64,000 nucleotides of DNA from contig NMRA01000020.1 in assembly GCA_002633005.1 (NCBI GenBank), positions 950,803 to 1,014,802 of the forward strand. Direction: 5' to 3'. Below the pieces are notes generated by a model, which had not been told where the DNA came from, did not search any database, and saw only the letters and a list, made by a program, of their open reading frames with translations. The position numbers and the translations under genes were made by a program. The stretch's first letter is position 1, and each line of letters opens with the position of its first letter. Below, one piece after another: positions 12,421 through 36,696 of this stretch. The DNA is from Phoronis australis. Taxonomy: Eukaryota; Animalia; Phoronida.

Positions 12421-15142
12421 TCACGGTGGTTCTTGTTAACCAGCTTGGTGGTGTGTGAAAGGGAATGCGCAATGTCCTACACCGAAACTATTGATCATTT
12501 GCGACTGTTTGATTACTGAAATCAAAATCCTCGTGATTAACTTAGGTTAACCAAAACTTGGATTCATTTTTCAGACAATATTAATTTGGGATGGACATGT
12601 AATTCATCATGGCGAATGATTGCCGTGCGACTGTTGATGCAATACCAAAGACTGTGAATTCTGGATGCGCACCGATTTCGACCTTTTTAACTGGCTATGG
12701 AAAATCGAATTAAGCCTTTTAATTTCAGAAAATCGGTCTTATAATATTCCCTGCCAGGATAGGATCATCTGATTCCGTTACCAACAAGAAAACCGGAGAC
12801 CACCAAGGACTCATGAAAACGCTGACCCACGAAAACGCTGAACTCTCGTATTGGAGTTGGTGAATCCTAAATCACGATTTTCGAACGCAGGCACGTCACT
12901 TGCTCGCGGCTCAGCATTCACAATATGGGATGAGCTTGATAAAGATTTTAAATCCCAAAATACTTCAGTTGAGAATTCAACACTGACAGCTAAACAACCG
13001 TGAAATGGACTACACTGACATCAAGAATTGACACCAATTTGCCGTCAGCAGGTGAAAATGACTTGAAGGTATTCACTTTTAAAAAACATCCATAAAGCCG
13101 CCTACCCACCAAGAAACAAAGTTCAGATTTAGATCACTTGCCCCGAAAAATGATCTCGGCCTTTACCTCATTCAGACGATCATTGATTTGTGTGTTTGCA
13201 AGGACCTGACAGTTCATTATTCCTTTAGAGCATGAGTCAACTTATAGAGCCTGGTCTCAATTGCAATAGCGAATTGTCAGTTCTTCGGCAGGCCTGAAAT
13301 CACCACCAATTTGACTGAGAAATAACTTGATGCCAATGTCATAACACATGCAGAAAGTGGCCTATACTATCAAAAATTTCTTTTGTGGTGGAAGGCAAGT
13401 TTACCGATACATGACATCAATTAGTAAAATCAAACGCATTTGGCATAATAGGCAGTTTCCTGCTGTAACTTTCCTGCCCTGTAACCAGAAACGACTTCAT
13501 GTACATTCTATTGTCTGCCAGTCAGGCAGAATGACATTCAATTAAAAACTGTTAACATGCCCTTGGGCAGTTGTTACTCTAGCCTGTGAAAATTGCAAGG
13601 ACAGTTTGCCAATAATTGTACTCATTAACAGTTCAAAATTGATTGTAAAATGAAAATAGCTCAGCAGGACGGTTCGGTTTGTTGCTAACACCAATAAAGC
13701 ACGTCAAAATGTTTTGTAAGATACTGCACCGGAATAGATTGATCAAAAGAAATGTTGCAACTAATTTCAGCGTCCCCTAGTGTACTTTCCTTGGCCAACT
13801 CCAGAGCCACAATTTCTTGTTAGCAGGATATTAACACGGTAGGTAAAATACCAAAAAGATTGTATTTTGATTTTATGATATTACGAGTATTGGATGTCCA
13901 TTGGCATAATCAGATTTTATAATCAAATCTTGGTCAGGAAGTTGCCATTAGACTTGGTGCATCTGCGAAATAGCAAGTCTTTGTGAGCCATGCTTTACAC
14001 AGAATGCTTTGTGTTCTGACAGGCACGCCACAAGTTATGTTCATTACAGGTATTTTATTACAACTTTTACAAGATTCTAAATAAAGTTGTAACAATCTGA
14101 GAGCCTTTGTGCATGTTTTCTGCAAAAGACAATTTTTGTAGACAACAGTAGAACTACAATACAGTCAGGTCAGCAATAGAGCAGTGTGTTCAACTGTCGG
14201 GCAGAGAATATGTGTAAATAATACTAGAATAACCATTATCTCAATATAAATAAATTTAACACATAAAGTGCATCGTTGCATATTAAAACTACATCATTCA
14301 GCTGACACCATAAATCACTTCAAAGCAGAGACTCAAAGATATAAATCTGCCCTGTGTATATGAGACACTAATCTCAGCTTCAACAAGTGAATGTTTGAAA
14401 ACAGAGAATGTTCACTGGCTCTTACCACCTCCTGGGGTGACAGTGCCCCCTATTGACTGATATCACAGAGAGGTGGCAAGACCACGCAAGTTTCAGTGTG
14501 ATATCTTGAGTAGTCTAGTCACGGCATGTAACCTCACATGACTTCACTTATCAGTAAGCAAAAAGTGAACATTATTCAACAGCAAAATGACATTGGTTTC
14601 AATTATTTGACACACAAAATTGTCCTGAGCTTATTCCTCAAAATTTCAACACATCTGAGTTCAGGTTTTCAATGAACTAAATGAGTTTTTCTTTTAGACA
14701 AACTTCTCACAGCAGTTTGGTGTAACAAATTACCATGACCAAAGAGTGAGATTCTAAATAACTTAAAACCAATGTAGTTGACTGGCAGGGAATTCAGTAA
14801 TCCTTGAGTCAAATAGAATACGGTCCTTTCAGCATACATTATTAATTTTTTTCAATCCTGAAAAATCGAAGGCAAAATCCTTTATTTTTCACATCCTGTC
14901 CAATTTATTTTATCAACCTAACTCACAGTATAGCAGGTAAAGATCCTTGGTACAAAAGCAAGAGATGCACGTGACCGTTTCATTCCATTTTGAGTGTCGG
15001 CATCAACATAAGCGTAATAAAAGTGTATTCCAGAAATACATCATGACAACCAAGGATATCAAATTCACTATGACCACCAATGTGTAGAATTCAACATGGT
15101 AGTCATCAAATGTATCAAATCCATGCATCATTGTTGCGTAGG

Positions 15143-15410
15143 CTAACACACAGCTAGTTGTTCTTCCGACAAGCTTCCACATGTAACATTATTGTTTATG
15201 CTCTCCGGAAATGCTGTAAGACTGTCTCTCAGTTTATATTTTTTGGCAGGTCCAACATCCTCCACTGCACAATCATCGTTGTTATTTGTTGTCAAGGCGC
15301 GTCTGCAGCCAATGGGTGAACCAAATGGTGATCGCAGAGGCACCGAGGTGCAATGTTCATCAGATCTTAACCACGGGTCTAGAAGACATTCACTAGCTGA
15401 TAATCTCTCA
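15143..15410 (-). CDS. STK17: DRAK/STK17-like kinase, last coding exon (subdomain XI and C-tail)
   Basis: tacag|T GAG AGA..., 268 nt. Encodes ERLSASECLLDPWL...GPAKKYKLRDSL...EQLAVC*. The AKKYKLRDSL segment resembles the DRAK C-tail SKRFRFDDSL. Confidence 0.92.
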
Positions 15411-15947
15411 CTGTAGAAACAAAAAGTAGGCCATTAACAACGCTATTCAGTGACTACACAACTTCTGCGACAAAACCTATACTCGAGACCACGGGAGAAA
15501 TGCCCATCGGAAAAATTTAATGTTAATCAGTAAAGCGCCGATGACATAAAGCTTCCGACACTGATCCAAAAAGTTTGTAGCAGAAAAGTGTTCACATCGG
15601 CTGGTAGTTGGATGGTAATCTGGAGTGCCAGTCACCAAAACTAACTATTAATCTAAATAAAAATCAACCTACCATACTGGGCATTATGCCACCCAATCAG
15701 CGGAGTCGCCCAAGCATTGATCAACACGTGATCAAGGTGCAAGACAAAAATTGAGCAAGAATCTTGGTGAAAACTTGAAACAATGGAAAAATTGTGCGAT
15801 TACTTACTTAAAGGAAAACAACATCAGTTAACCTAAAAGAGCACTAGAGAAAAGTTACAACACTTTCCTGTTTTGGGTTTGTCATTTTACTGATTTTCAA
15901 CAAGCGAAAATCACTTTCATATATATCGATGATGCAGTTCTATTTAC

Positions 15948-16127
15948 CTTGGTTCCCTAACGAGACACTTGCTAATAAAGTCTTTTGCTTGGTTTGAAAC
16001 GTCAGCAAACAAATCCTCCGGGAAGTCCAGATTGACCTGTGCTATATTGAGGAAGGTTTCTTGCTTGTCATCTCCAGCAAACGGTGAATGGCCAGTTAGC
16101 ATTACATAGGCTAGAACTCCAATACTC
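15948..16127 (-). CDS. STK17: DRAK/STK17 exon 6 (subdomains IX-X)
   Basis: ccag|G AGT...CCA AG|gtaaat, 180 nt. Encodes [59 protein letters not shown], including the DRAK signature [15 protein letters not shown]. Confidence 0.96.
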
Positions 16128-16752
16128 CTGGAATACGGGCACAGTCATGGGTTAAAGAACCAATCAATATGGTTTTGAGTATCAGAAGACATAAATTGTA
16201 ACTAAAATTGATCTGCATTGCTTTAAAGGTTGAGCAGCCAGAATGAGGCATTCTTGTGACCAGACTCGTGTCATTTTCAAATCTGCAACAGGAATTTTTG
16301 TTAGCAAAATAGATTTCAAATAGATCATCACAATTGAGGCAGACACTGAATTGAGAATGTCATAAAATATCAAAAACAATGACAGTCATAAATATCAGGG
16401 TTATTAGCCATCGGTGATTAATAAAATAGACAATGTCCCTCTCTCCACACTTGACTGAAAACAAAGATAAATGTTTGTAATTCAGTCAGAGGCTTGATTC
16501 ATGCTGACAAGTGATGCGGGTTCACCATTTTATCACGGACTTCATTCACCCTGTCATCTGCTTTATTACCCTTCCACAAAGATTTCCTTTATCAGCATTC
16601 AAATTCAGCAAAAATGACCCTGAATGACAATTCTAATCTCAGACACAGAGTTCAAATGGTTTGCTGTAAACAACATCAGTCCCCTGGGAGCCAAACATTA
16701 AGACACCAAGTAGTAATCACTTACACACATTGAATTATCTACATCTACTCAC

Positions 16753-16801
16753 CAGATGTCAGTGTATGTACTGATAGGTTCATAACTAAGAACTTCGGGG
16801 G
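16753..16801 (-). CDS. STK17: DRAK/STK17 exon 5 (APE motif)
   Basis: ttcag|CC CCC GAA...ATC TG|gtgagt, 49 nt, phase 1-2. Encodes APEVLSYEPISTYTDIW. Confidence 0.95.
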
Positions 16802-18247
16802 CTGAAATGAACAAGTATTGACCATAAAATACAATGGCTGATTATTGACAACTTGATAAGCACTCCTTTGTTTTCCTCACCAACTTATGGCTTGAGAAAA
16901 TGTACTTTGTCCACTGTGGGAGCACAGTACACTTACTGAACATGACACTAGGTGGCATTTTGAGTACTTGCTGTTGGTCTGCCTTTAAGTGCAAATGAAA
17001 TATGAAGGAGATAGAATGATCTTAAGTATCAAAAATAGACACCTATAATAACATTAACACTGGTTTCGAAATGAGTAATTAAGTTGGCAAAGAACAGTTT
17101 TTAAGGAAAAAAATCAGAGATTGATAATACCGGTAAATTCATAATGTACCATGGATTTCTTCACTCATGACCACAAAGTGGGGCCAAAAATTATTTGTTG
17201 TGAATTTATTATTAATCCCGTCATCCCCAATAACACTTTAAGCAAAATATGTGAAATATATGATAAGTCGACAGAACTCAGTGTGAACAATATAGCAACT
17301 TAAATCAAGCAGGCATAAACAGAGAACCTTTTTCAATGTAAACATTCACACAAGTTTGATAATCATATTGTAAATTGTGCACTTAAATTACACGTTAATA
17401 CATGCAAGTCACACAAACCCATTCTTTCCCACTTCTGCATCCAAAAAAATATTCTTGGGGCAGCACATTTATAGCAAAATTTCACCAGTTTGAGACAAAA
17501 TATGGCAAACAAGAGATTTTTTCAACTTTTAGATTCCATATCGTATCTAGATAATATAATGAAACATTCTGCATAGTCAAAACAATGCGTAAGCCTTTGA
17601 AATAACAATAACGATCAATTTTGGCAACGTTTTGACTGTCTTAAATTGGTGAACTTTCACTACAGTCATACTCCGGTAAGACAGTATGGGTTTAAAGAAT
17701 AGCTAAGCAAAAAGTTACAAAATGATCAAGGTAGCAACAACAAGAAGAAAGTTAAGCATCAGAGCAGAAAACCATGAAAATGGTGACACTGCCAAGAATT
17801 GGTACCACAAAGGTTATACACTGAATACATTGGAACATGATATCATCCATTGCATGTCATATTGTTATATTGAAGTTAAAGTTGGGAGAATAATCACTAC
17901 TTTTTTCCCTATATAATGAGGACCAAAGTCGCTAAAAAATAAAATAATATGAAAAAATGCATGCGAGACTCTCTTTGGTTGAAAGTCAAACGAATGATAC
18001 AAAACACAAAACTGATCTTTAGGTCTTAACCTGTGAATTGACTTGCAAGTTTTATGCAGTCTAAGAATGAAGGTTGTTGATTATTGTGAGGCACTCAACA
18101 GGGACATTCCACTATTGCATAATCACATGCTATTTCACTGTAAATATCAAGTGTATAACTTTCATGAATATGGGCACACAGAGAAAGGAACAAGGTTATA
18201 AAGTTTGCCATCATTGGGATTTGATGGCCCAGTTGGTTGACTCTTAC

Positions 18248-18374
18248 CAACGTAGTCAGGTGTGCCGACAATAGCGCAAACATCTTTGCTGTCATGAACA
18301 AAGTGGGCGCAGCTAAAGTCGGCAATTTTCAGCTCGCCTTTCGGATAGGTATCCATTAGTAATATGTTCTGGGG
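18248..18374 (-). CDS. STK17: DRAK/STK17 alternative exon 4B (activation segment, DFS variant)
   Basis: ttctgcag|CCC CAG...GTT G|gtaaga, 127 nt, phase 0-1, open frame. Encodes PQNILLMDTYPKGELKIADFSCAHFVHDSKDVCAIVGTPDYV. Confidence 0.88.
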
Positions 18375-19162
18375 CTGCAGAATAGTGAAAGAATATGACA
18401 CAATCAGGTTTGTCTGGGACATCGACAAGTCGCGGCACAGACAAAACTGAAGACCACCTGCTGATTTTCATGCATGGCACTGCCTCTTGTTTGACGGATG
18501 TGCATACCAATCTAGGAGCAGGTTTTCTACATCTCAGCTTATTTTTACCAACTCGTAAACGATTTTCTAGAAATCCAAGAGAACATCAATGCAAACTTAA
18601 AATTACTGAAACATGCCAGCAATGCTGAGCTGACCGCGAGTTTAAAGCCATGCATTAAAAATCAGAAAGAATCGACAATGTCAGTATATGTCGTGCTTTC
18701 AGAGAAACGAGGTATCCTGTTTGTGGCATACGTCTCAAGTCAGTGGACTTCAATACGGACTACAATGTTCTTTAAAGAACAACCAACTAACTCCCTCAGG
18801 TATTCCAAAACCAAGTCACTGACTAAGTACTTCACAAACATGTTACCTCGACAAATAATCATTTTACAGTTCATCAAAACGTGGTCACTCCTATAGAATA
18901 ATGGGACCGTGAGAGAGAATTCTGCCAAAATATTCATATTTGGAATATGTAGTGTCCAAGTAGGGTTTATTTTCGTTATTGTGGCAAAAGACATAAACAC
19001 TTTTTCTCACAGAAGACATCGCCTTTTGTTTGAGGTTAGTGGCAAAATGTATCCCAAAATTCTCCACCAAGAAAGGAGCAGGGCAGGTTTTGGAGAAACT
19101 GTTAAATGTCAGTAGAACAGATAGATAAGACCATCACCATGACAACAGGTGGTTTCACTCAC

Positions 19163-19289
19163 CAACATAATCGAGAGTGCCCACAATGTCCCTCAGTTCT
19201 TTGTGTTTCAACAAGAACCGAGCAAAACCAAAGTCGCACAACTTTATTTTGCCTTGTGGGTAGGGAGTAGTGAGCAGTATATTTTGTGG
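19163..19289 (-). CDS. STK17: DRAK/STK17 alternative exon 4A (activation segment, DFG variant)
   Basis: tttacacag|CCA CAA...GTT G|gtgagt, 127 nt, phase 0-1, open frame. Encodes PQNILLTTPYPQGKIKLCDFGFARFLLKHKELRDIVGTLDYV. Confidence 0.92.
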
Positions 19290-19588
19290 CTGTGTAAAAT
19301 ATAGGCAATATAGGGCGCAATTTGTCACAACTCACTCAGCAGAAGTATAAAATGTACGCAACATTACTAAATCTAGGAATCATAACAATTACATCATTCT
19401 AGACAAGTTAAGTATTACTAATAAAGTATACATCTAAGCACTTTTGCCACAAAAATAGTTTAACAAAATCTGGGAATAAGACAAAATGAAAACTGCAAAC
19501 AATGTCAAATTCAATTTAACATTTTGTGAGAAAATTTTGAAGTTATTCTTCCACAATAAAGTTCATAGTCAGCAAAGCAAATGCATAC

Positions 19589-19730
19589 CTTTAAGTCTAA
19601 ATGTACAATATTTCTTTCGTGCAGAAACTGAAGTCCCTCTAGTGTCTGCCTCAAAAGTTTTACTACGTCTTTCTCTTTGAAATCCTCCTCCAAACCCAAG
19701 CAATAGCTATGAAGTTCTCCCCCTGCAGCA
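19589..19730 (-). CDS. STK17: DRAK/STK17 exon 3 (hinge to catalytic loop)
   Basis: cacag|T GCT...AAG|gtatgc, 142 nt, phase 2-0. Encodes [47 protein letters not shown], with the non-RD HLDLK typical of the DAPK/DRAK/MLCK group. Confidence 0.96.
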
Positions 19731-20316
19731 CTGTGGAGGCAAAACGGTTAGTAAGTAAACATCCAAATAAACACGACTTTCAAAACATTCAAGTCCAGGA
19801 AGTACATGAAAAACTATACAGATTAGTGCAATGAAGTCTTGACAACTACAATTGCCGAACAACCTTCTTGCATTTATCTAGGGTTTTTAACATTGCTGTG
19901 ACTGCTCATATTATCTTATGGTAGCTATGGTACACGATTGTGACACGGAAAAAGCAAATTCACATCTCCCCCATCCTAAACTGATGAGATTTTATGGTAT
20001 GTCACACATATACCAGAGGTTGACGAATTCCTCAACACATCTCCTGGTATCTTGTGGGCTGTGTACATCCAAGTACTAAAACAGAATCTGTAAACACTGT
20101 CTGTAGAATGTGACACTTTCAATCAACATCTGGTTGACAAAGTGTTGTTTTTCTCTAGACCAACAAGTGGGAAAAGCTAAAATCTCTGACTTATCTACCA
20201 AAAAAAACATAAATCCTTTTCCAAGTTAATAAATCTGATACTAGTCAAGGGTCAACAGAAGCTGTGAAGTTAAGTTGACCATTAGCTTTGGAAACCAACC
20301 TCCCAGTTATTGCTAA

Positions 20317-20389
20317 GTGGTGCTATTGTCATCATTATTACTAGGTGGTGCTATTGTCATCATTATTACTAGGTGGTGCTATTGTCATC
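20317..20389. repeat. 28-bp tandem repeat, ~2.6 copies
   Basis: Unit GTGGTGCTATTGTCATCATTATTACTAG. Confidence 0.9.
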
Positions 20390-22952
20390 CCAGTTATGGC
20401 AAGGTGATGTAATGTGTCTTAAGAAATATGAACCACACTCTTTGACAACAGCAGTGACCCCTGTAATAACTTTTTTGGACAGGAAATTTGAGCATTCAAA
20501 CTTAGCAACGAAGCTGTCAAATCCTCCTGTTTACCTTGAAGTAAAATTTGAGTTGTTATTGGATTCGAAGCCAAACTGAGGCTCGGTGGCTCCCCCACCC
20601 AAGCGTGGACGTTAGTGGCAAAAGCCTGACAATTCACAATGAATCAACATTACCAATGCACAGTTATGTTTACCTAAGGACTTTATAATTGAATGTATTT
20701 TCACATAAAAAATACTGAAATTCCTTGTTTGACTGAAATGCAAGTTTTTGCACCTGTATCAAACAAATTTTGCAGAAAGATTCTCCTGAGTAAGGGAGAG
20801 AGCAGTCATTTGGGAGAAAGATTTGCAGAGCTGCTGACTCACCACGTAACTCTGTAATGGGAAGGAGCACCACAGGAATGCTGCTAATTTTCCATAAAAC
20901 TGACAGCTTTTTTTAACAATTAATTCATAAAAAATTAGATACGCAGCAGAAAGTAAAAAAACACTTTATTTTCAGCATTTTTAAAGTAATTTATGCATAA
21001 CATTTGAAACTTTCGTTGAACATGAGGTTTTAATTTTCATATTAGGGCAGCACCAGTCAAAGACAGAAACTTTTTAATGTAAGCCTTATCCTACATATGG
21101 ACTGAGCCTTCCAAAAAGGCAATGGTGATTATTAAACATAATATAAACCAAGTCAGATAAAATTACACGTAAGAGGACCTCTGGTGGCAAACCATGTACA
21201 TGGAAACCTGATAAGTTGTGTTTACTCAAGTCAATGTTATGACATTTAAACAGTATTAACAAAAGAGGATTACCAATGATAAGCTGTTTACAAGTGAAAT
21301 TAGACAAAAGAAAAGCGGCTCCAATCAGTGTGTGGCTATCATAATATGATGTTTAGGACCACATGAGACCTCAGCATTCAGTTATAAAATGGTATTCAGG
21401 TGGATTTCAGTGCTACATCCTATATATGGGTAGTGGACATAGTAGTAGTTTGTGACATGCATTCATCAGTAGGTCATGGAGGACAATCCACAATGGCATT
21501 ACCAGAGGAATGTTCTGTTCAAAAGAAACACAAATTTTATTAACCCAATCACTTGTGCCTAGTTACCAAAATGTATTTCTATTTGCAAAATGTATGCAAA
21601 TAAATGGGTTACAGCAAAATAATAGTGGCAAAATTAAAATGACTAAAAACGACAATGACCATTTTTATGGCATCTGTTCAGGGCAGCAAGTGGAGAGTGG
21701 TGATAGAGTGACTTACCAGTCTTATTACCACCCAAAGGAAATTTAATCTGGTTCACTTCGAAAGCTTCACAATCCCTGTTTATATTTTGTAACTCCTGTA
21801 ACAAACACCCAAGAGAAGAGTGCTTTTTTTTGCACTTTTGAAAAGTGCATCAAGAGCTAAAGCTAAACTTGTTTGAAATCCAAGAGCTGTAGTTACCTAA
21901 TTCGCACCATCTCTATAGACAGCTCGTAGCTGAGTGCCTATCAAGTGTTCTTGAAGGAAACCTTAGAATAACAGATTGATACGGCGAATCCCTGGTAATC
22001 TATTTGCGGAATTATCCCCAACGACTGGTCTGCAGGTAACCATGTACAGTATGCAATAGCCACTTGAATAACAAACTGTCAGTTTTGCGACAGGTATCGT
22101 TGTAGACTGGGCATTTTGTGATCAACGCCAGGTGTGTTCAACTGAGAATTCTTGAAAACAACCCGGCAGAATACTATGATGTAAAGATAAAAGTACGAAG
22201 AAAGAGTACTTGTATTACTCTTGGGGAAATCAAAATATACTTAAAACTGAAACTGTTGAACTCTGCTTTTTGTATAAAAATAAGTGTGAGATCTACAAAA
22301 GGCAAGACTGCAGCTGGCTTGAATATTTTGCTAGGTCTAATCAGATCAGATCAGAGCTCTGGGTTGGACATTTGTATTCGGAATTATTTTTTACATTCTC
22401 CATTCTACTTTACACAAAAAGTCAAGGCACAACAAGTGTCTATTTCCTGGGCACAAGTAATGAGTGTTTATTCCAGGTTTGCACTTGATGACCCATAGAT
22501 TCAAGTTATGAACATGACTTCAAACACAAAGTTACAGGGTTAATTGTGGGGTCATCAAGTGAATGGTAAGACTAGACAGCCATTCATGAAAAGCAAAGGG
22601 GACTCAGGTACAGAATAATAAACAGTTATATCAAGTTCGCACAGAAATAGAACGAACAGGTCAAAAATAATTTTGAGATGGATTTCAAGGAAAAATGTGG
22701 ACTTGGCCCAGATCAACATAGGTATAGACACATTAGTGTGCCAATGGTTAGTTACCCATGTCATTATCCAAATCACATGTTCAGCATGAGTTTTTTTAAA
22801 CAGTGAACAGTTACTTTGGTTTTCAGTTTTTCAGTACACTGTTTGTCGGTTACTCATACGTGTTGGCTTATTCAAAAACAAAACTTGACACTAAGCCAAT
22901 GACACTATTTGTGCATGGACCATGTGCCAAGGCAATAGCAGATATCACTCAC

Positions 22953-23165
22953 AGTTCCATGATGACTATCAAGTCATGCGCCGACTCAAACACTTCCTTC
23001 ATGTCGATCAATCGAGGATGATGCAGCGCAATCTCCAACATCACCAGCTCCACCAAGATATCCTTCCTGCAGTCTTGACCTTTGCGACTCTTACGGATGA
23101 ACTTTGCTGCGTACTCTTCACCAGTTTCCTTGTGCTTCACTTTCTTGACCACGGCAAACTTTCCT
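22953..23165 (-). CDS. STK17: DRAK/STK17 exon 2 (Gly-loop to subdomain V)
   Basis: tccag|A GGA AAG...GAA CT|gtgagt, 213 nt, phase 2-2. Encodes RGKFAVVKKVKHKETGEEYAAKFIRKSRKGQDCRKDILVEL..., with the DRAK-specific GKFAVV and basic-loop RKGQDCR motifs. Confidence 0.97.
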
Positions 23166-24540
23166 CTGGAGAACAATGTACAGAGTCAGTGTTGTATGAA
23201 CTACAGATGTATGTAACCAGACAAAACACCGTGTACTTGTCATGACGGCCAATATCATAGCTGTCATAACAGCAAAAAAAGACTCATTTCTGATAGTAAA
23301 TATAAGGGTGGCAAAACTCTAGATTCAGAATGACTTAGCTGTCTTCATAATTTCCCAGCTAATCTCCCGTCGTTCTGGGTCACGATGGAAGGGTATGACT
23401 CGTGAATTCGACTTCTGCTTGTACTGATATTTTCTGCAGTCTGCACATGACTGAGGACCATGGAAAATAGTGTCAAGATATGAATTAGTACCTTGAATCT
23501 CACATAGGTGGAAATGTGGTAGCAACATCTGGTCAAAACGAGTATGAATTGTTCGTTTGGGTATGGTAGTGCAGCAAAAGCTCATCAATTTATGAAATTA
23601 GGGAGATTAACTTTTCACACAATGTACAATTGAAAACAATTCACAATGTTTATAGATAAAGATGTAATTGTTGGACATTTTGATGCTTTCCAAGAATTAC
23701 TTTTCACCTGGTGCAAAAAATTTCAATCAAGTATTTATTGAGGGCGCTAGACTATTACATGACCAGTTTAGCAATATCTATGGACTAGCCTAAAACACCC
23801 TGGACAATGAAAATACTAAAAACTTTATAAAAAATTTACTAATTCAAACGATGATAATATTCACATAAAAAGGTGAAACGAAAAGGAAAAATAAATGAGC
23901 CACTAGTAATTGTTTTGGAAAGATTTGAATAGCTAATACATTGCAACCCAAAAGTATTCAAACAAAATGACCCTAAATACCCCGTCATGACGGCTGGGCA
24001 GACGCCAAATTCACCATCAGAGTAGTCTCCCCTTACCGCCGAGAATGAAGGGGAATTTACAGGACGGTTAGTAAGGCGACAAAACCATTCTGTAATTAGA
24101 AATTCACCACCAAGAATAATTATTACCAGTAATTTTTGCTGTTAACAGAATTATTCCTCATGAAGGGGGTATGGTGTTTTGTCTGGGTAGTTTGGTCTTG
24201 TAGTGTTGTTCAAGAAGGTATTGGGAAATATTCGTGGCAGTTCTAGAATGAGCATGGCACTGGAAGTAACAATCCGAAGACACATTTAGAAAATTAGGGC
24301 AGCGTTTTTGAGATTTCACTTTGAAATGAACGTCAAATTGAATTTTTTCATGTCAATGAAGCAGCTATTTCTCTATAAACGTGACTTACGTTTTTGCTAA
24401 ATTTTATCAAAAAGCCATGGTCATGTGACCCAATCAATGACAGTTTGATACAAAATAATAAATCAAATTTTATAGGCTTTCTACCTGCAGAAAGTATGTA
24501 TTTTATGCTGACAGAATCAAATTTTACAGTTTTATACATA

Positions 24541-24711
24541 CCGTAAACTCGCGGGCTAACACCCTGACTCAGGGAAATTGCCCACTCCGGACTTTTGCCA
24601 ATTTTCAGTTTAAGTGCTAACTGCTTGGTTAATTGCCCACCCCGTTTCAGGGTTTCCTAATTTATGCGCTCAGGGTGTTAACCCCTCAGGGTGTTAACCC
24701 GTGAGTTTATG
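24541..24711. mobile_element. Small TA-TSD MITE
   Basis: TA|CCGTAAACTCGCGGGCTAACACCCTGA ... TCAGGGTGTTAACCCGTGAGTTTATG|TA, imperfect TIRs. Confidence 0.7.
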
Positions 24712-25875
24712 TAACGACAGACTTGTCAATAAGTTGGTGAATGGTGAAACTTCCGGCATCATCAAATTTAGCGGAGTCAAATCAGACATACTACAACATA
24801 CACCATTATAAGTAAGAGGGGAGTGTGGGACAGATCCTAAGAGACAGCATGATTAACAGCTACTTATGGTAACCAATGGTTTCCATTTTCACATCCATCA
24901 AAGTATATATAACCCTAAAGCTTTTATCACCCAGACCACAAATGTAGACACTTGTCTATTGGGCATATACCTGTATGAGCACAGAAAAAAAAATCCAGTT
25001 TCAGACAGTCTTTTAAATTTGGGAACCTGCAATTCAAGCCAAAATTGAACTTTCTAGATTCTGAAGATTGGAACATGGGCAATTTGGCATTCAATGCGTT
25101 TCTCAACTATTGGGAGACTACATTTTGTATCAACAAAGTCTGAGATAATAGTGGGAAGTAGCTGCCAATACAAAATCCTCTTTCTGGTGAATCCTGAATT
25201 TAGTACCGACAATATTGCTAATTCTAAAATTTGGTACGAATTCTGATATTGAGCAAAATGATTTTTTTGCTGCTCTGAAACTGGAGAATTTTTACAGTAC
25301 CGCTATGTCAAGATGTCACTGAAACTGTTCAGTCAACACTACCAGTATTTGGGAGCAAACATTCTGGTGAGACAGGCATTCGCAAAGACACTGCGACACT
25401 TCTAAGGAAAAAGAGTCGGGAGTATGGTAAACTGTCACTAATTTAGGACACAATATGGCAGACAAGTGAAATTGTATTTTTTGATTTTTTCCAAGAAAAA
25501 TATGAAGCAATAAAGTAATGCTTTTTCAATTTCAAGGTTCAGGTACCAACGCTTGCACCAAATAATAACTTGAAAGAAGTGTAGGCAGCCTTTCAGATCA
25601 ATGTTAGAAGCTTATAAAAATGAAAAAAATGACTATTTTGGTAATTATTTTGTCTGCACTAAGTTGAGCATGGGCATTCAAAAGTGAAAATTTTGATATC
25701 TGGGAATAGGCGTTGAGACAGGAGTAAGGCTGAATGAAAAGGAAACAACATGAAAAGCATGCACAATTTAAATGTTCAATGTTAATCAACTTTTCATTTT
25801 TACATAATCAAATTTCTCGTTTTTCTATGCAACTTTTGCTCGGTTAATAGCCAGATCGGAGATCTATGAATTACC

Positions 25876-25953
25876 CACAGTACACTTTAGTCTACTGTCC
25901 TTCAAGTGACCATACCTACAGTACACTTTAGTCTACTGTCCTTCAAGTGACCA
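25876..25953. repeat. Two-copy ~42-bp tandem duplication
   Basis: ACAGTACACTTTAGTCTACTGTCCTTCAAGTGACCA occurs twice. Confidence 0.85.
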
Positions 25954-28900
25954 GACCACCGAACATCTCTCTGTAGGTGGTCTTTTCCAGCAGCGCAATA
26001 AAAAAAAATTCAATAAGTATTGCTAAAATTGTTACTACTTCAAATGTCACTTAATTTAGTGGATTTTTGCCTTTGGCCATGAAATAAAGAACAGGCCTCC
26101 AACTTTAAATACAAGATAAGTGTCTCATACTGTTAATCAAAACGTCGCGTTGAGCATGAATTTAAAGGTTTGATGAAGAAAAAACATGCCTAATATGCTT
26201 CCTCTTGTAATTAAAATGCCAACTGGAAACAATAAAACATAATCAAATTAACTTGAAATGGCTATAAACCTGAATTCCGTCCATTCAAGAAGCGAACTTT
26301 GGTACTTTCTGCTACAAAATTTGTCTCAACTGGTTCTGTACTCAGATTTCTGGGATGACAAAGAATTGACAGTTGGGAATTCCTTGTCCAGACGAAGGGT
26401 GGTGAACAAAACGTGACAAGTTCACATACAAGAACCTTGCGTGCATTCAGTAAAGATAGGACCTACACTTGGTCCTAGATAAAATCTAGCCAGAGTTATC
26501 TCGGGAAGTCTTGCTTTTCAGCGAGGTCCTAGCATTACTGAACAGGAGGCTGGTCTCAGTGAAAACCAAACCATGTGTTCTTCTGAAGCGCAGGAAATCC
26601 CCTACAATTAGTCTAAGGAATAACTTGATGTTCAAGTGGTCTACACCAAAAGTTGGTTTTGTGATGGGAGGCACGTGTTTTATAGTTGCTTTAAAGAGTT
26701 ATACATTTCAGAAATAGTAAACTCAAACAAAACTTGGTGGAATGAGTTACAGTTTGGGTAAGCCACTTTCTTCCTGCAGCATGGACTACAGCATATCACC
26801 CACTTCCACAACAGTGAGTCCTCTAAATCAAAAACTGATTTCTGTGATGAAAGGTGTAATTTTGGCTTAGGGGGTTTCACATTAAAATTAACATTCAAAA
26901 CAATAAAATCTCGATGAAATTAATTTTCAAAACCAAAGTGATAAAGCAATAAACATGCGATAAATAAAATTGTTTCTTCATCAACAATAAAAAATAGTTT
27001 TTAACCGAATACCAATGCACTTTGTGAAGTTCGATGCTGCAGGGCAAGACTAAAGACTAGGCAATCAGTTCAAAATAGAAAATAAACATTGTTGAAAAAG
27101 GATCGTTTGTCTGGATATCGCTTTTGTTAATAGAACTAAAGGAATGCAGAGTTTTTAGTGACACAGGGAAAGAATGCCCAACTTTTTTAATTGAATCATA
27201 CGTTTGTGGGGATGATGCGAAGACAAAAACCACACATAATGGCAGAAAAATGAAACACAATACACTGGACTTTTGTGAGGGTTAGCACCCATCTTTGATA
27301 TAACACTGACCCTCGAAACTTCCAAATTTACATTCTCAAATGGCCACACTTGGTTTTAGGGGTCAAAAACAAGTTTTTGAGATTATCATTGTATGGGAGA
27401 GACTTCTTGAAGTTATATTAGCTTTGACCAGAAACAGCAAAATTTGCTGTTTGGTGATTTGATTAGAAATTAATGATTTTCGTCACCAGCTTCCAGCCAT
27501 TTGTTGAAATTATGGCAAATCATGGCCTGAGTGTCTCTATCAGTTAATATGCTTAAAAACTTGACCACCAGGCCAATGGGTTTTAGCACGAATGGGTTTT
27601 AGCAATACTGCAACCACTGAGGTCGAGAGTTCAAATACAACTTTGGGCTGATCTCAAATAAACAGTATTGAGGGCAAGTGTTTCACTTTAACACCTATGC
27701 TACGCCTAATATCCACTCCCCAGTTTTTTGTCCAAAATTGGTGAGATTTTACTGTAAGACATTCCACCGCTGTGTGCATGAATTGTGATGTCAGTGCAGT
27801 ACCTTAGGACAAAAACCCAACCAACAGTTTGGAAAAAAACACATATGCCCTTGGCTTCTTAAAAAATTGTTTTTATATGCATGCGCTTGGCTTAAAGCTC
27901 TACCTCCTGACTTTTTCCCAATCAAAGTGGTCCGTGGGTGACAACAAATACATGTATGGTAATAGTTTATCGTTAAAAGAAATTAGCGAAAACACAATCA
28001 AATAGCAATTACTTTTACTGTACTGAACTTGTATTTCAGAAAGAGGTGCAACTAGTTATCTGCCAATTCCCATGCTTTTTAAGCATTTTTAATGACGCAG
28101 GGGCGCCATTAGTGGAATTACCCCGAGGAAAATATGAAATATGAAGAACTATTAATCCGGATGAAAGAGATTCGACTCGATAACAATTTAAATGCAGGAC
28201 GTCATACTATCAAAAATATTTGTGCGTGAAACAGCTCGAGGGCACTCTTAGTAAACTTTAGTTTTGAGCAGATTCTCGGTGGAGAACTAAATGTGGAGGG
28301 GAAGAGGAAGTGTGGTAGTTGGAAATGAATACAAGGTCCTGCTTTGAAGCTAAAGATTTACACACGTGTATCAAATTTCGAGCTCACATCAGTTTAGTAA
28401 GCATGGGCTTTGAAGAAGAGGATGACTTTGAGAACAACCACATCGTTTTGTCATTGGTATATACGCTTCCAGGAAAAAAATGGTACACGACTCCAAACTT
28501 CCCCTCTCAACTGATACATGAATGTGGTCAAGTCAAATTACAGAAAATGTATTTATCTAACAATTTACACTAAACGACAGCCTACATGGAGGAAACTTTC
28601 ATTTACACAAGTTCACATTTTTGGGCAATTTATTTAGAAAAGGAGGAAACATTGAAGAATATACTGCACCATACCATTCCTTACTATAAAGGAGTGGAGA
28701 CAATTGTAGCCATGTAAGTGTACTTACGGCACCAGTGTTCAACTGTCATGAGAGAAACAAAATTTTTGATTTAGATCATGTTCTCATAAAAACTTTTCTC
28801 ATTTCGCTTTTTACTCAGAAGTTACTTGGTTTCTGAGCTCCAAAAAATAATTTAAAGACAGGTACGTATCAGGTTGTTCTGTAATAAAATGAGAGGTGTT

Positions 28901-29256
28901 TTCTGGGTTTGGGACGGACTAGCCGAGTCCTGCTTGAGATCAGTCTCGCCAGGGGCATAAAATGACAAATGTGAATTAAGCCAACCTGCACTGCGACCTC
29001 AGATAGGTCTCAAAAACAAGTATGAACCGTCGGTATTTCAAGACCAGAAATCATCTCCAGTTTGAGTAGAGACCTACTTGTGACCAATTTCACAACTGTA
29101 AGTGAGGCAACAGTCATTAATAAAGGGTCCCAGATTTTGAGAGTCAGTTAAATGCCTGTTCAGTGAAGAAGACTGCTTCTCAAATGTGAGATTCCTAAGA
29201 CCGACTACTACCTTAAGTGGTCTCAATCGCAAGTTGTTTTTTAACAGAAAACAGGC

Positions 29257-32200
29257 TTTTAATAGAATAGCAATTATTATGGCAATCTGAGAACCCATGG
29301 AGAATAGCATCACTAACTTCCGTCTTTGTAGAAGAAATGAAACAAGCAAGAAAAACAAATCATAGTGTCTGACTGCAACTCAGACTTCACATGGATTTAA
29401 ATAAGAAATCATACAGTTGAGTAAATAATTCTTTAGTGCCATCCAGACAAATTGCCGCCAAGCACAATAAAGTCTTGACTTGTTTTATTGCTGATTAGTT
29501 TTGTATTTTATGGGCACAAAGCCCTTATCTAAATAAGCATATTTTTTCAAACTCCTGGTTGGATCACTCCCGCCCAGAGTCAAAGACAAACTGCATGTTT
29601 ATGTATTTGTAAGAATGCAATCCAGTTGTAACTTGTTTTTCATGCACTACAAAGTAGCCATTTCTGTATGATGCTTGACAGTTTAAAGTACCCTACTCAT
29701 GAAGCTGCATAACTGCCAAACACCCAGCATGGTCCAACAGGCTTACACCCATTTTAATTTTGGGAAGAGGAGAATTATGACACAACCTCACCTGTGGTAG
29801 GCCTACTAACTTAACAATGGGGAAAATAGGTACAAAAGTGACAAATCCAATGTGAATGAGTGTTCCAAACAATGGTGTTTTCAAGTTGGATTTGCGACAG
29901 ACTTTTACTCTAGTTCACTAAAACTGCACATATTACACGTTATAATTCCTCGTTTTGTCAGCAAACAGCGAAACGAAGTCCTTAAAAAGTAACGAACAGG
30001 TAAAGTTTAAAAAACATCATTTTTACTAAAGCCATTCAGTATTGTAGGGCCAGATCAAGAACAAAAACAAAATCACAAACAGGAAACGTAACTGGTCTGG
30101 ACAGAGAATGATGATTAAATTCCATTCGTAATTATCAAGGTTAGGCGGGTTGGGAAATGTTAAACTCTGCTGGCAAATGTATGCACATGTGTCCTGGGTA
30201 CTGACCCACAAATTAAATTGATAATAAAAAGTCATCTCCTCTTACTGGGTTCATAGGCAGTGGTAACATGTCATAGACTGCCATGAAACCTATTGTTGCC
30301 ATGGGCACCTTACCCTAGTCAGGTTACACAGTCAATTGTGTGACGCATCCTTGTATAAGTGGTGATGAATCAAAATTCCTTTAGTTTCCCCGTTTCCGAA
30401 AATATCCAAAAAATAAATACATTGGATCGAGATCTATACAAACTATTAACTTCGTATAGATAAACTTGTGTTTTCATCATAGTCATCTTTAGTTATTTGA
30501 AACCAAATTACATGTTGAAAGATATTTAATGTTGTTTCTTCGCAAGTACAAGATATGTGACACATGTAAAATGACAGCACCATGGCATCTCAGGCGGATC
30601 AAACCAACAGAAAATGTATATTTTTGTAAATGTATATCACAATCTTTGATAAACTGCATTCAAGAAAACCAGTTTGAAGTGTCCCTGATGAATTTGTGTT
30701 ACTCCTCAAATGGATGAGAATTTTTAGCCGCTCTACAACAAACTTTTGTTTTAATAAGCACTTGCTTTACATAATTCAGGATCCGTTAATGTTATGTAGT
30801 ATTCTCAAAAACTGAGTGACCTGTTAGAGTGTCCCGCGATCGTTTTACAAAGACTTCATTTGTGATATGTTTGTAAATACGTGCACTGTCAATCAAATTT
30901 CAGTTATTAACAGCCACAGGTCCTTTTAAAGATTGTACAATCTATAAGATGGAGTTCAGTAGATGTCTCGCAGCGAGAAAAAGAATCTCGCCAAAATCAT
31001 GTGCTCTCATTTAATACATGGCAACACCTCTCCCTATCTCACAGACTTTCTTTTCTAGCCAGGTCCTGGTATTATTGAACTCTACACAGGTTTACCATAA
31101 GTGCAGGTGAGAAATACTCATACTTAATGCCACTGTCAACTTCTCAAAGGTCTGCATATGATTTACAAGAAAATGTTCCGTGACAATAACTTTTATAGAA
31201 TGATTGCCATCAGTTGGTTTGAGTAGATGGATTAGCAAGGGGTCAAGGTCGCTAGTAACACTCCAAACCACTTGCTGTGCAGTAAAATCTTACCAATATC
31301 AGGCACAAATGTTTGGCATTTTGATCGTTTTTTCATAGATCAAAAACCTCTAATCTTTGAAGTGGTGTCCATAAATTCTTTGTCTAGTGGTGGCTATAGT
31401 ATGGTGTGTAAAAATGATAAGGCTTTACTTCTGGTTTTTTTAGATTCATCAATTTTGTNNNNNNNNNNNNNNNNNNNNNNNNNNNNNNNNNNNNNNNNNN
31501 NNNNNNNNNNNNNNNNNNNNNNNNNNNNNNNNNNNNNNNNNNNNNNNNNNNNNNNNNNNNNNNNNNNNNNNNNNNNNNNNNNNNNNNNNNNNNNNNNTTT
31601 TAATAGAATAGCAATTATTATGGCAATCTGAGAACCCATGGAGAATAGCATCACTAACATCCGTCTTTGTAGAAGAAATGAAACAAGCAAGAAAAACAAA
31701 TCATAGTGTCTGACTGCAACTCAGACTTCACATGGATTTAAATAAGAAATCATACAGTTGAGTAAATAATTCTTTAATGCCATCCAGACAAATTGCCGCC
31801 AAGCACAATAAAGTCTTGACTTGTTTTACTGCTGATTAGTCTTGTATTTTATGGGCACAAAGCCCTTATCTAAATAAGCATATTTTTTCAAACTCCTGGT
31901 TGGATCACTCCCGCCCTGAGTCAAAAACAAACTGCATGTTTAGTATTTGTAAGAATGAAATCCAGTTGTAACTTGTTTTTCACCACTCCTAAGTAGCCAT
32001 TTCTGCATGACGCTTGACAGTTTAAAGTACCCTACCCATGAAGCTGCATAACCGCCAAACACCCAGCATGGTCCAACACGCTTACACCCATTTTAATTTT
32101 GGGAAGAGGAGAATTATGACACAACCTCACCTGTGGTAGGCCTACTAACTTAACAATGGGGAAAATAGGTACAAAAGTGACATATCCAATGTGAATGAGT

Positions 32201-34367
32201 GTTCCAAACAATGGTGTTTTCAAGTCGGATTTGTGACAGACTTTTACTCTAGTTCACTTTAAAACTGCATCAATTACACGTTATAATTCCTCGTTCTGTC
32301 TTCAAACAGCGAAATGAAGTCCTTAAAAAGTAATGAACAGGTAAAGTTTAAAAAACATCATTTTTACTACAGCCATTTAGTAGTGTAGGGCCAGATCAGA
32401 AACAAAAACAAAATCACAAACAGGAAACGTAACTGGTCTGGACAAAGAATGGTGATTAAATTCCATTCGTAATTATCAAGGTTAGGCGGGTTGGGAAATG
32501 TTAAACTCTGCTGGCAAATGTATGCACATGTGTCCTGGGTACTGACCCACAAATTAAATTGATAATAAAAGTCATCTCCTCTTACTGGGTTCATAGGCAG
32601 TGGTAACATGTCATAGACTGCCATGAAACCTATTGTTGCCATGGGCACCTTACCCTAGTCAGGTTACACAGTAAATTGTATGACGCATCCTTGTATAAGT
32701 GGTGATGAATCAAAATTCCTTTAGTTTCCCCGTTTCCAAAAATATCCAAAAAATTAATACATTGCATCGAGATCTATGCAAACTATTAACTTAGTATACA
32801 TAAACCTGTGTTTTTATCATAGTCATCTCTAGTTATTTGAAACCAAATTACACGTTGAAAGATATTCAATGTTGTTTCTTCACAAGTACAAGATATATGA
32901 CACATGTAAAATGACAACACCATGGTATCTCAGGCGGATCAAACCTACAGAAAATGTATATTTTTGTATTGTATATCACAATCTTTGATAAACTGTATTC
33001 AAGAGAACCAGTTTGAAGTGTCCCTGATGAATTTGTGTTACTCCTCAAATGGATGAGAATTTTTAGCCCCTCTACAACAAACTTCTGTTTTAATAAGCAC
33101 TTGCTTTACATACCGGTAATTCAGGATCCGTCAATGCATGTAGTATTCTCAAAAAATGTTTTTAAAAAGTCGCAGCGAGTGATTTGTGTCCCTGAGTGTC
33201 CCGCGATCATTTTACGAAGACTTCATTGGTGATATGTTTGTAAATACGTCCATTGTCACTGGTAAAAGCATAAGAAATTGAACTTTTGCGGTAATATTTT
33301 TTGCTCTGCTGTGCATTACTGTTTAGTGCCCTAAGGTACAAACAAGGCAGGACAGCGTGCACTTCAGAGAACATCAACTGCCAACTGAGTGATTCCGGCA
33401 TATTTGTTGGCGTTTTCACGCATGTGGTCAGTGTTTAGGTTTTAACATGTGGAGAACACTGAAATGTGACAGGCCCCCTAGCACTGGTTGCAAACTGCCT
33501 CAGTGTTCTCCACACTCAAACATTCAAACATTCAAACATTCAAACAGGTCGCGTTTACAACCATTTTGGAAATTTAGACAGTGTGCAGTATGTGTATATC
33601 ATAGCGACAATGGAAAAAATCAATTGTTTCACGTGCTACTTAAACAGGTCAAAAGGAAAACCAAACAGGTCATGGAGAACAATGTGCCAATAACAAGCAA
33701 ACTCTACATTCATTTGCAAAATATCATTTTTAAATGTTAAATGTGTTTTCATTTTGTGCAGTGGAAAGATTACATCAATATAGACTTGCAAGATAATTCA
33801 ATCAAAGTTCAGTTATTAACAGCCACAGGTCCTTTTAAAGATTGTACAATCTATAAGATGGAGTTCAGTAGATGTCTCGCAGCGAGAAAAAGAATCTCGT
33901 CAAAATCATGTGCTCTCATTTAATACACGGCAACACCTCTCCCTATCTCACAGACTTTCTTTTCTAGCCAGGTCCTGGTATTATTGAACTCTACACAGGT
34001 TTACCATAAGTGCAGGTGAGAAATACTCGTACTTAATGCCACTGTCAACTTCTCAAAGGTCTGCATATGATTTACAAGAAAATGTTCCGTGACAATAACT
34101 TTTATAGAATGATTGCCATCAGTTGGTTTGAGTAGATGGATTAGCAAGGGGTCAAGGTCGCTAGTAACACTCCAAACCACTTGCTGTGCAGTAAAATCTT
34201 ACCAATATCAGGCAAAAATGTTTGGCATTTTGATCGTTTTTTCATAGATCAAAAACCTCTAATCTTTGAAGTGGTGTCCATAAATTCTTTGTCTAGTGGT
34301 GGCTATAGTATGGTGTGTAAAAATGATAAGGCTTTACTTCTGGTTTTTTTAGATTCATCAATTTTGT
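29257..34367. repeat. Tandem 2.2/2.8 kb duplication flanking an N gap (29257-31458 vs 31598-34367), likely uncollapsed alleles
   Basis: Highly similar copies with scattered substitutions. Copy 1 ends and copy 2 begins exactly at the gap edges. Copy 2 has an extra 542 bp (33259-33800). Confidence 0.9.
31459..31597. other. Assembly gap
   Basis: Run of N. Confidence 1.
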
Positions 34368-36696
34368 ACAAAATAACAAATCATTTTTTCATCTTTCAAA
34401 GGCTTGAATCCAATTTCTGAAAAGATCTGATGCTGGTAGACAGTAGTCATCGCATATAAATTACATATCGCCAGCATCAGTTTAGTGCGACTTGTCCTTT
34501 AGGAAAAAGAGCAAATAAAAAATTTCACTTCTCCGCCATATTGTGACCTAAACTGACGAGATTTTACCATACTTAATTTTCATGAAAGAAAAAACAAAAT
34601 TTTGTTTGTCTGTAATTAACTCTGTCTTAAGTTGAAGATTTTATCTGAACTTCACTTTCATGAAAATAAAAACAAACATGAAAATAAAAACAAAATGTCT
34701 TCCGTCCGCCATACATTGTCCTTGTGCTCTAACAGTGTTCATTATGTGCTCAGACAATAACACCATGCCAACAGGTGGCACTATTAGCAATAACATGATT
34801 TTTATGTGAGTGTCATTGCCATACATGACTAGGGCAAAAACTGAGACATCAAAAACCCTGAATTCCATCAATAAATTCTCTTTCCCATGTAAATCAAATC
34901 AATTTACATTTTTAAAATTTTGAAATCAAGACTTTTATTTTATCTCAGTTAACATATCTGTGACACATTTTGTTAGTGCCCAAGACTATTTTTACATTCA
35001 TAGTAAAAAACATGGGCACACTTGACAGTAAATCAATTGCCTCGTAAACCACAGTTTCCGCCAATTAAGGGCCATTAATTGAAACACTTCACCTAGGACT
35101 GGACAAGGCAAATGATCCCAACAAGAGTTACAAAGCATAATTGAAATACCATTTACCTGATTCAGGGCATCAGGTGTTGAACCCATTTTCAGGACAGCAA
35201 GCATGTGTTCCTATCTGTTACTTTCATTCAGAAGAGGCAAGCAAAATTTAGTTCATGTATTTAAGAGCTAGGGTACTTGGAGTCCATAAACAATGTTATA
35301 AATCAGTGTATATATTTAACTGATAGTGTAAGGCTAAAAATAATGCACTAATTGTTTACCTTATCAAACAACACTGCTATAAAGGGTGGAGTTTTTTCCA
35401 TCAAGCCTGAAAATGGCTGTACTCAGAATCTCAACTAAATTTGTAGACACTGTCACTTCAAACAGTCAGGGCAGGCTCCTACATTTGTTGACATAAAAAG
35501 CGCCTTAATGAAGATAAAATAAAGAAAGCCCAGCAACAGTTTTTGCAATTGGTCATCTAAACCGGTTGAATATTTCTAAGACATATCGCATTGCCAAGTG
35601 ACAGTAATAGCCGACATCAAGAGCAAATGGGATCAACAAGTTTGTACAGTCCAATCTTTATGTAAACCTTTTCTAGCTGAAATGAGAGGACTATTGGCAT
35701 TCTGTCAAGAATGGCCACAGAACCACCTGCAATGTGCCATTAATTCTGCACAACTGGTGACAGAGTGCAGCTGCAATCCAGAAGATCTTTCCCTGGCTTA
35801 CCAAGAGGTTGTTCACGTTTTGAAAACAGGACATACGAAGTCAAAAACTTCATCTTGATTTTCTTTAGACACATTTTGGTGCAAAATATGAAACAGATGA
35901 AACATTTCAGAACTACGTAAGCAATCTGCACGGAAGAGACAGATGCCACAGAGATTCTCCACCTCATCGGAATGAATAGATTTTTGTGACTCTTGATGCC
36001 CTTACTGCCTTTTGGGGGTAGAAATTAGTTTCTGTCATGATAAGGAAAGATTTGTACGGCAATCTACCTGGTTGTTTAACCTGGTTCCTCATTTGCACTT
36101 TAGGTGGTGGTTAATGAAGCAACAGACCCTTTAAGAATCACTTGCCACAACCTGTGCAAGGTCTAACACCAATGGCACTGATTGCCACTGACAGTAGCAA
36201 GCCTATCAGAATGGAGAAACAACACCAACTTCCTGCGTTGATGGTGAAAGACATGCTTTTTTCAAATACTAATTACATCAAAATGTCAGCGTGCAACTAA
36301 TGGACGAAGGCATTTAGAAGCACCAGAGGCACCGGGAATAAAAAGGGAAAAGTAAATCGTTAGGAATTGAATTAAAATTCTTGCGAGATCAGTTTCAAAA
36401 GAGCCGCCATTTGCAAATGATTTGAACCTCAATGGATGCCATTAAGATGTACACACGAAATATTGTACCAGGTAATTTTAAAAGCGTGTTGGTCTTACAG
36501 AAAAGTTTGAAAATTTGGTGATAACAACTAAAAAGAAAACTAACATTTACTAGAAACAACTTTTTCTTAAAGTGGCTCTATATCAGCTTTCTGTCCAAGA
36601 AGCAAACTTTTGATTAACGTATGCCACACACTGAGTTATAAAATTGTCCTTAAATTGTTCATTACTCAGATGAGAAGTGATTTGATGTTTGTAAGG

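Follow-up and report, generated by a model that had tools for sequence, protein, structure and literature searches.

Known systems of structure-guided exclusive splicing

In human ATE1, two duplicated exons, 7a and 7b, are each preceded by similar elements that overlap their splice sites and pair into the intervening intron (the R1, R3 and R4 sequences), one pairing pointing downstream and the other upstream. Both elements share a single partner, R3, the exons are 129 nt long and remain in frame, and the pairing is conserved and proven by mutation, according to the available part of the report (PMC7797038). Judged by its layout, this is the nearest described system to the locus considered here, a pair of exons, 4A and 4B, in an STK17 kinase gene of Phoronis australis, which may be viewed as a donor-side mirror of ATE1 with two partners. 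The phoronid gene likewise has two duplicated exons whose similar, splice-site-overlapping elements would pair into the intervening intron in opposite directions. Its elements, however, lie after the donors instead of upstream of the exons, each has a partner of its own, the exons are 127 nt long and the pairing is known from the sequence of one genome. As the partners are separate, the two elements would not compete directly, unlike those of ATE1, and the presence of two partners also sets the locus apart from the docking/selector family.

A study of Dscam exon 17 (2013) reportedly dealt with a two-exon cluster in which RNA structure was proposed to act together with crowding between donor and branch point. 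It concerns a different gene and lineage, and an extra stem on the downstream donor (S3, below) is proposed only for STK17. The clusters of Dscam exons 4, 6 and 9, Mhc and 14-3-3zeta resemble the STK17 locus, as described in the available portions of the sources, in having duplicated exons, long-range intronic stems of 14-18 bp and selector-like elements (PMC6071210, PMC6027157); they differ from it in their common docking site. Exon 4 of Drosophila srp offers a further parallel, namely two pairings that have no common site and are thought to be alternatives. In srp each stem encloses an exon and acts by approximation, as far as the accessible text of the sources goes (PMC4691838, PMC6071210), whereas in STK17 the only exon within a stem is 4B, which S3 encloses; S1 spans nothing but intron, and each of the two touches a donor. 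By analogy, the STK17 locus may operate in the manner of Dscam exon 17 and, in part, of the bidirectional pairing of srp.

The exon pair is apparently unreported. No description of it was found in the literature searched, with subscription journals mostly outside that search, and neither STK17A nor STK17B turned up in a search of the supplements of two human catalogues of mutually exclusive exons.

An STK17 kinase gene with two versions of exon 4

The locus lies on the minus strand of a 64,000-nt stretch of genomic DNA, here called the window, to which all coordinates refer. By its sequence the host gene is an STK17/DRAK kinase, and the part of it that matters here is laid out as follows.

22953..23168, minus strand: exon E2, constitutive, kinase N-lobe (joint 19730-22953, loose ends at 23168, 66-68% identity to oyster STK17)
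19589..19730, minus strand: exon E3, constitutive, ending in HLDLK (sequence and RNA joints)
19163..19289, minus strand: exon 4A, 127 nt, minor form, with DFG and GTLDYV (RNA joints; best PDB matches STK17A and STK17B)
18375..19162, minus strand: intron between 4A and 4B, 788 nt, with a predicted compact fold (MFE z -2.8)
18248..18374, minus strand: exon 4B, 127 nt, major form, with DFS replacing DFG, and GTPDYV (RNA joints; 52% amino-acid identity to 4A)
16753..16801, minus strand: exon E5, constitutive, APE motif (sequence and RNA joints)

Exon 1 lies outside 14800-34700. STK17A and STK17B (DRAK1 and DRAK2) are the sole PDB matches of exon 4A, and over the kinase domain the identity to the closest homologues from invertebrates and amphioxus is 60-70%. 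In a tree of 28 kinase domains, from which five chosen sequences without a detectable start motif were left out, the gene falls with Owenia, molluscs and one more protein in a group without internal resolution; its position is not within the mollusc clade (support 89/87, not starred).

At the DNA level 4A and 4B agree at 74/127 nucleotides and at 13/42 third codon positions, the latter being saturated, and the window holds no third copy of exon 4. Swapping one for the other exchanges the protein segment that begins where the catalytic loop ends and runs through the P+1 loop, and to judge from the residues involved the two kinase forms may differ in activity or specificity. The major form, 4B, reads DFS at the DFG motif, which apart from 4B was not seen among the homologous segments listed; named copepod STK17 homologues (P0169, P0176) and many of their relatives read DLE there. 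The minor form, 4A, reads GTLDYV against GTPDY or GTPEY in nearly all homologues listed, and a metagenome locus (L001) also reads GTLDYV. Elsewhere in the gene, the long first intron contains short dispersed repeats (23900-28100, about 31000 and 33900) that draw many reads from elsewhere on both strands, as well as an ORF-like sequence in two near-identical copies (about 31040 and 33949); the E2-E3 intron has a short tandem repeat of about 28 nt (20385-20320, minus strand).

Among 302 homologous proteins, grouped in clusters of which at most 15 members each were listed, no protein carries two copies of exon 4 and no cluster contains two versions of it. As no cluster shows two versions among its listed members, the duplication looks lineage-restricted. 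An ancient exon-4 pair spread across animals was considered and set aside, the two types found in the same 302 proteins being types of lineages (DLE in named copepods, PNNILLM in named anthozoans). Searching proteins with 4B as the query gave no hit in 24 candidates. Scans of metagenomes, GTDB and viruses yielded no orthologous intron: metagenomes contributed a single locus, L001, which has E2, E3 and one copy of exon 4, ends before E5 and shows no intronic similarity to the window; GTDB contributed a weak bacterial match (L002), and viruses none. A DNA contig, X1, which may be the source sample, differs from the window by 7 substitutions and 2 indels, all in other introns and none listed in the 4A-4B intron; the substitution at 17493 is confounded by repeat contigs, leaving 8 or 9 intronic differences. 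The absence of differences from the 4A-4B intron has a P of 0.055 for 8 events, a weak value because the differences cluster. Two further identities for the region were discarded, those of a hosted non-coding RNA (in 16700-19800, Rfam gave 0 matches up to an E of 5) and of a repeat (no second copy of the 4A-4B intron in the window).

Either/or use of the two exons

Splicing was followed in three stranded RNA runs, X6, X7 and X8, about 18-19% of each being read, and joints were tabulated when supported by at least 3 reads from 2 starts. Only four joints appear in 16700-19800 at this threshold of at least 3 reads. In X6, X7 and X8, respectively, E3 is joined to 4A by 27, 28 and 12 reads and to 4B by 90, 63 and 13, while E5 is joined to 4A by 36, 40 and 1 and to 4B by 136, 129 and 14. 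Exon 4A therefore takes 63/289, 68/260 and 13/40 of the junction reads (22-33%). Neither a 4A>4B nor an E3>E5 joint was found in this interval in the three runs at the threshold of 3 reads. The preliminary description of the locus had proposed that the exons are used either/or, and the reads confirm it: 4A and 4B are a mutually exclusive exon pair.

That description did not take account of frame. With a length of 127 nt, joining both exons or skipping both shifts the frame and creates a premature stop 296 nt (both joined) or 165 nt (both skipped) upstream of the last junction, so that nonsense-mediated decay (NMD) could hide products that are not exclusive. Both stops speak for an explanation that we regard as rather unlikely overall, in which the intronic stems are incidental, splice-site competition and RNA-binding proteins set the choice, and the apparent exclusivity is largely NMD of frameshifted products. 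If the exons were included independently, however, about 115-120 joined or skipped reads would be expected in each of X6 and X7, and hiding them would take about 30-fold decay. Usual NMD effects are smaller than 30-fold. The strength of decay required favours, and does not prove, exclusivity at the splicing step.

Some features of the RNA runs stand apart from this question. In X8 the introns that follow 4A and 4B have a read coverage of about 1-7x and the E3-4A intron is not covered; the covered ones are possibly retained introns. A 4A donor stalled in that run (12 reads for E3>4A, 1 for 4A>E5) was considered and dropped: Fisher's p is 0.013 on reads and 0.096 on read starts, and other downstream introns are also covered in X8. 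Exon 4B shows variants at 18258 and 18294 at third codon positions, synonymous by sequence, that at 18258 being near 50-68% in all three runs; A-to-I editing was rejected for both sites, as A>G there corresponds to U>C on the RNA strand.

Three long stems in the intervening intron

The preliminary description had drawn three stems, S1, S2 and S3, within and just beyond the 4A-4B intron. Checked in the sequence, their coordinates, bulges and G-U pairs are exactly as given there, including the starting point of S1 at +6 of the 4A donor, its extension via UCAUG and AUGG, and the span of S3 over +3 to +17 of the 4B donor. All six arms are assigned from the sequence.

19143..19157, minus strand: S1 5' arm, +6 to +20 of the 4A donor, holding the shared 9-mer at +9
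18448..18463, minus strand: S1 3' arm, pairing with the 4A donor element
18647..18665, minus strand: S2 5' arm, including a branch-point-like CUGAU (A at 18662)
18461..18478, minus strand: S2 3' arm, adjoining S1 with a 3-nt overlap
18775..18788, minus strand: S3 5' arm, pairing with the 4B donor element
18231..18245, minus strand: S3 3' arm, +3 to +17 of the 4B donor, holding the shared 9-mer at +10

As bare duplexes, S1 (15 bp), S2 (18 bp) and S3 (14 bp) amount to -20.4, -23.4 and -15.4 kcal/mol. A hairpin domain is predicted at 18850-18708, and in its apical loop stands the S3 5' arm, which shares nucleotides with a 16-nt palindrome (18781-18766); the S3 3' arm can alternatively form a local hairpin with the 4B donor itself (-8.7 kcal/mol).

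Excess over chance was assessed with a compact-stem metric (G-U pairs permitted, no more than one 1-nt bulge, loop >60 nt) over the 945-nt region 19162-18218, both metric and region having been chosen after the stems were known. In an unanchored scan of this region S2, S1 and S3 come out as ranks 1, 2 and 3. Their scores are equalled in 10, 3 and 12 of 400 dinucleotide shuffles and in 9, 1 and 3 of 122 genomic tiles, and the summed energy of the top three in 1/400 shuffles and 2/122 tiles of the window; the fourth-ranked stem is ordinary (104/400 shuffles). Anchored on the donors, the same metric gives 1/2000 shuffles and 0/144 tiles for S1, and 15/2000 and 4/144 for S3. Over 18 tests of splice site by intron, the best results are S1 (0/400), S3 (6/400) and the 4B acceptor with the E3-4A intron (6/400), and S3 at 6/400 does not survive correction for the 18 tests. 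With the looser metric of RNAduplex, S1 is equalled in 2/300 shuffles and 0/160 tiles and S2 in 0/186 tiles (its anchor picked post hoc), and S3 is not significant (34/300 shuffles, 12/144 tiles). On the antisense strand no compact stem rises above the null (best -19.7 vs a null mean of -21.1). The excess over chance is firm for S1 and S2 and borderline for S3, and the expectation that the stems would outdo shuffled controls holds to that extent.

These counts bear on the reading of the stems as incidental in both directions. Tiles from the same window sometimes equal the stem scores (2/122). Against this, S1 stands at 1/2000 and two of the top three stems fall on the two donors, which we count against incidental stems. 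A second argument carries less weight. The restriction of G-U pairs to the sense strand had been taken as a sign of selection at the RNA level; the G-U pairs are there, but a search of the sense strand admits G-U and not A-C by construction, and the folding of the intron differs little between strands (MFE z of -2.8 sense vs -2.4 antisense), which makes the argument weak. Of the shuffles, 0/82 are as stable as the intron. The near equality of the antisense strand in whole-intron folding speaks against the folded-intron model proposed below.

Other complementarities occur around the pair. The polypyrimidine tract of 4B has complements both downstream (18394-18373 with 17442-17421) and in the E3-4A intron (18395-18385 with 19554-19544). 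Three pairings beyond those of the preliminary description reach 0/150, 4/300 and 6/300 shuffles by RNAduplex, among them the 4B acceptor with 17442-17421 (0/150) and the E3 donor with the 4A-4B intron (4/300). The best stem enclosing 4A (19554-19544 with 18395-18385) scores 6/400 in shuffles but 37/396 in tiles; 4B is enclosed by S3. As the significance of these extra stems on the 4B polypyrimidine tract and the E3 donor depends on the metric and the null, they were not accepted as support and are leads only.

A shared element after both donors

A near-identical 9-mer (8/9) stands at +9 after 4A and at +10 after 4B. In 8.1 kb of the gene it is present only after those two donors, and the pattern of its complement has just two occurrences, each within the 4A-4B intron, giving each donor's 9-mer its own separate partner. 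The sole difference between the two 9-mers is matched in the partners, as C-G in S1 and A-U in S3. Random pairs of introns attain 8/9 similarity in 210/20000 draws. Given that the silent sites of the exons are saturated (13/42), the 9-mer is unlikely to be a leftover of the duplication, and its being shared raises S3 above its stand-alone score.

When each donor element is paired with the partner of the other, the energies are -8.3 and -9.1, vs -23.1 and -18.9 with its own. There is, by this cross-pairing test and by the coexistence of the S1 core with S2, no common docking site for both donor elements, and the analogy with Dscam, Mhc and 14-3-3zeta drawn in the preliminary description loses the shared docking site that defines those clusters.

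The 9-mer could alternatively be a protein-binding motif, which would suit incidental stems, or an anti-donor hairpin. In the latter case, which strikes us as very improbable, it would fold back on its own splice junction and the intronic partners would release or re-register it, with no masking involved. Both donors do form local hairpins with 8-nt loops via the 9-mer (-8.7 kcal/mol for 4B, 4 bp for 4A), and such a role would account for a similar 9-mer at the same offset. However, local folding (-5.3 to -7.0) is shared by the remaining three donors tested, forcing S1 raises the predicted accessibility of the 4A donor only a little (0.20 to 0.27), and the outer helices of S1 and S3 run toward the donor (to +6 and +3), which fits masking.

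Folding of the intron and access to the donors

In constrained ensembles restricted to nested folds, the S1 core with S2 lies 1.0 kcal/mol above the free ensemble, S1 without S2 3.8, full S1 4.7 and S2 with S3 16.2. Snapshots of the nascent chain predict that the S1 core (0.97-0.99) and S2 (0.94) form together once the partner is transcribed, and that the probability of the S1 core drops to 0.63-0.64 when the RNA extends past 4B. S3 has a probability of 0.00 in nested ensembles; these models cannot judge it, as it crosses S1 and also the hairpin domain in which its 5' arm lies. Opening the local structure would cost 6.3 + 6.6 kcal/mol against a duplex of -15.4 for S3, and 8.5 + 7.9 against -15.2 for S1, which is about neutral; the net energies of both are near zero, and by these opening costs S3 would be feasible as a pseudoknot.

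Such predictions bear on a two-state switch, the scheme of the preliminary description, in which an extended S1 (4B state) alternates with S2 plus S3 (4A state) and S2 pries S1 from the 4A donor. Several features speak for it: the extended S1 overlaps the 3' arm of S2, S1 and S3 cross and would exclude each other in nested folds, the stronger S1 fits the majority 4B form, and forcing S3 raises the predicted accessibility of the 4A donor from 0.22 to 0.47 and lowers that of the 4B donor from 0.51 to 0.32. On the other side, S2 does overlap the S1 docking site as had been stated, but by only 3 nt (18463-18461) at the inner end of S1, away from the donor, leaving +6 to +17 untouched. S2 was said to free the 4A donor, yet its predicted accessibility is 0.22 with or without S2 and stays there when S2 is forbidden, the S1 core and S2 coexist within 1.0 kcal/mol of the free ensemble, and the change in accessibility stems from the loss of S1 and not from the gain of S2. 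The proposed 4A state of S2 plus S3 lies 16 kcal/mol uphill in the nested-only model, S3 being still possible as a pseudoknot. We consider a switch of this kind quite improbable.

Two further features lie between S1 and exon 4B.

18402..18408, minus strand: putative 4B branch point (CUGAU), A at 18404, -30 from the 4B acceptor, inferred from its motif
18403..18451, minus strand: S4, a local hairpin predicted by folding; it lies between the putative 4B branch point, which it would pair, and S1

The CUGAU is where the preliminary description had put it, inside a 37-nt zone free of AG, and S4 is absent from that description. In linear distance the putative branch A lies at +759 from the 4A donor, which is not short. 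S1 is predicted to shorten the path to 49 nt (58 nt with its core only), in agreement with the earlier figure of about 50 nt, and S4 would shorten it more. Steric thresholds are given as ~50 nt (PMC7969005, PMC5740500) and as 60 nt (PMC13762713) in the available parts of these papers, and a path of 49-58 nt to a putative branch point is at the threshold, not clearly below it.

Crowding could also arise without any stem, if 4B used a distant branch point near the 4A donor and the two exons were kept apart by plain steric exclusion, as in OGDH. A good motif for this exists (CUGAC, A at +54), near the 50-60 nt threshold. However, 38 AG dinucleotides separate it from the 4B acceptor, and the canonical motif at -30 sits within its 37-nt AG-free zone, which makes this explanation extremely unlikely. 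A second CUGAU, followed by a U-run, lies in the S2 5' arm, with a CAG 32 nt downstream (18665-18630, minus strand); from its motifs this is a possible decoy acceptor that S2 would hide, and no joint to that CAG is among the joints listed (at least 3 reads).

A folded intron as a proposed enforcer of exclusivity

We tentatively propose, with somewhat less than even confidence and by inference from one sequence, that the 4A-4B intron folds with S1 stacked on S2, bringing the 4A donor near the 4B branch point and blocking 4A>4B joining. S1, braced by S2, would close the intron over nested hairpins and place the donor ~50 nt or less from the predicted branch point, and the resulting crowding would prevent joining whichever exon wins. 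S2 would act as a brace for S1 and not as its antagonist. The choice of exon would be a race in time, with U1 binding at the 4A donor set against the moment, ~700 nt later, when the S1 partner is transcribed. The footprint of U1 at a donor does not reach +10 to +17. If U1 came first, the S1 core (+10 to +17, beyond that footprint) could still form and crowd the 4B branch point, leading to 4A>E5; on this path S3 would pair +3 to +17 of the 4B donor and loop out 4B, a second lock and auxiliary mask. If full S1 came first, it would cover +6 onward and 4A would be passed over in favour of 4B, the majority outcome. NMD would likely clear any products that leak through.

It is likely that the stems help to enforce the either/or choice, and probably not as a two-state switch; their structural role, as read from the sequence, is plausible but unproven. 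In DmRdl, according to the accessible part of one report, predicted structures proved dispensable in exon choice (PMC13762713).

A more elaborate version, which we think unlikely, would make the locus the ATE1 switch mirrored on the donor side, with two locks that are each private. Once the exon had been duplicated, long ago, the paralogous donor elements would have co-evolved with separate partners in the one intron, and exclusivity would arise from the crossed topology of the helices together with donor-to-branch-point crowding, the swap exchanging the DFG and the substrate-binding segment with the DFG-less form dominant.

Perspectives

In the literature surveyed, structure-guided mutually exclusive splicing is known mainly from arthropods and from a small number of human genes. 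An example from a further invertebrate lineage could test whether two non-competing stems on the donor side can enforce exclusivity without a shared docking site, and the 788-nt intron is small enough for a complete minigene. What the exon swap exchanges, with the support of reads, is the metal-binding and substrate-binding segment of the STK17 kinase.
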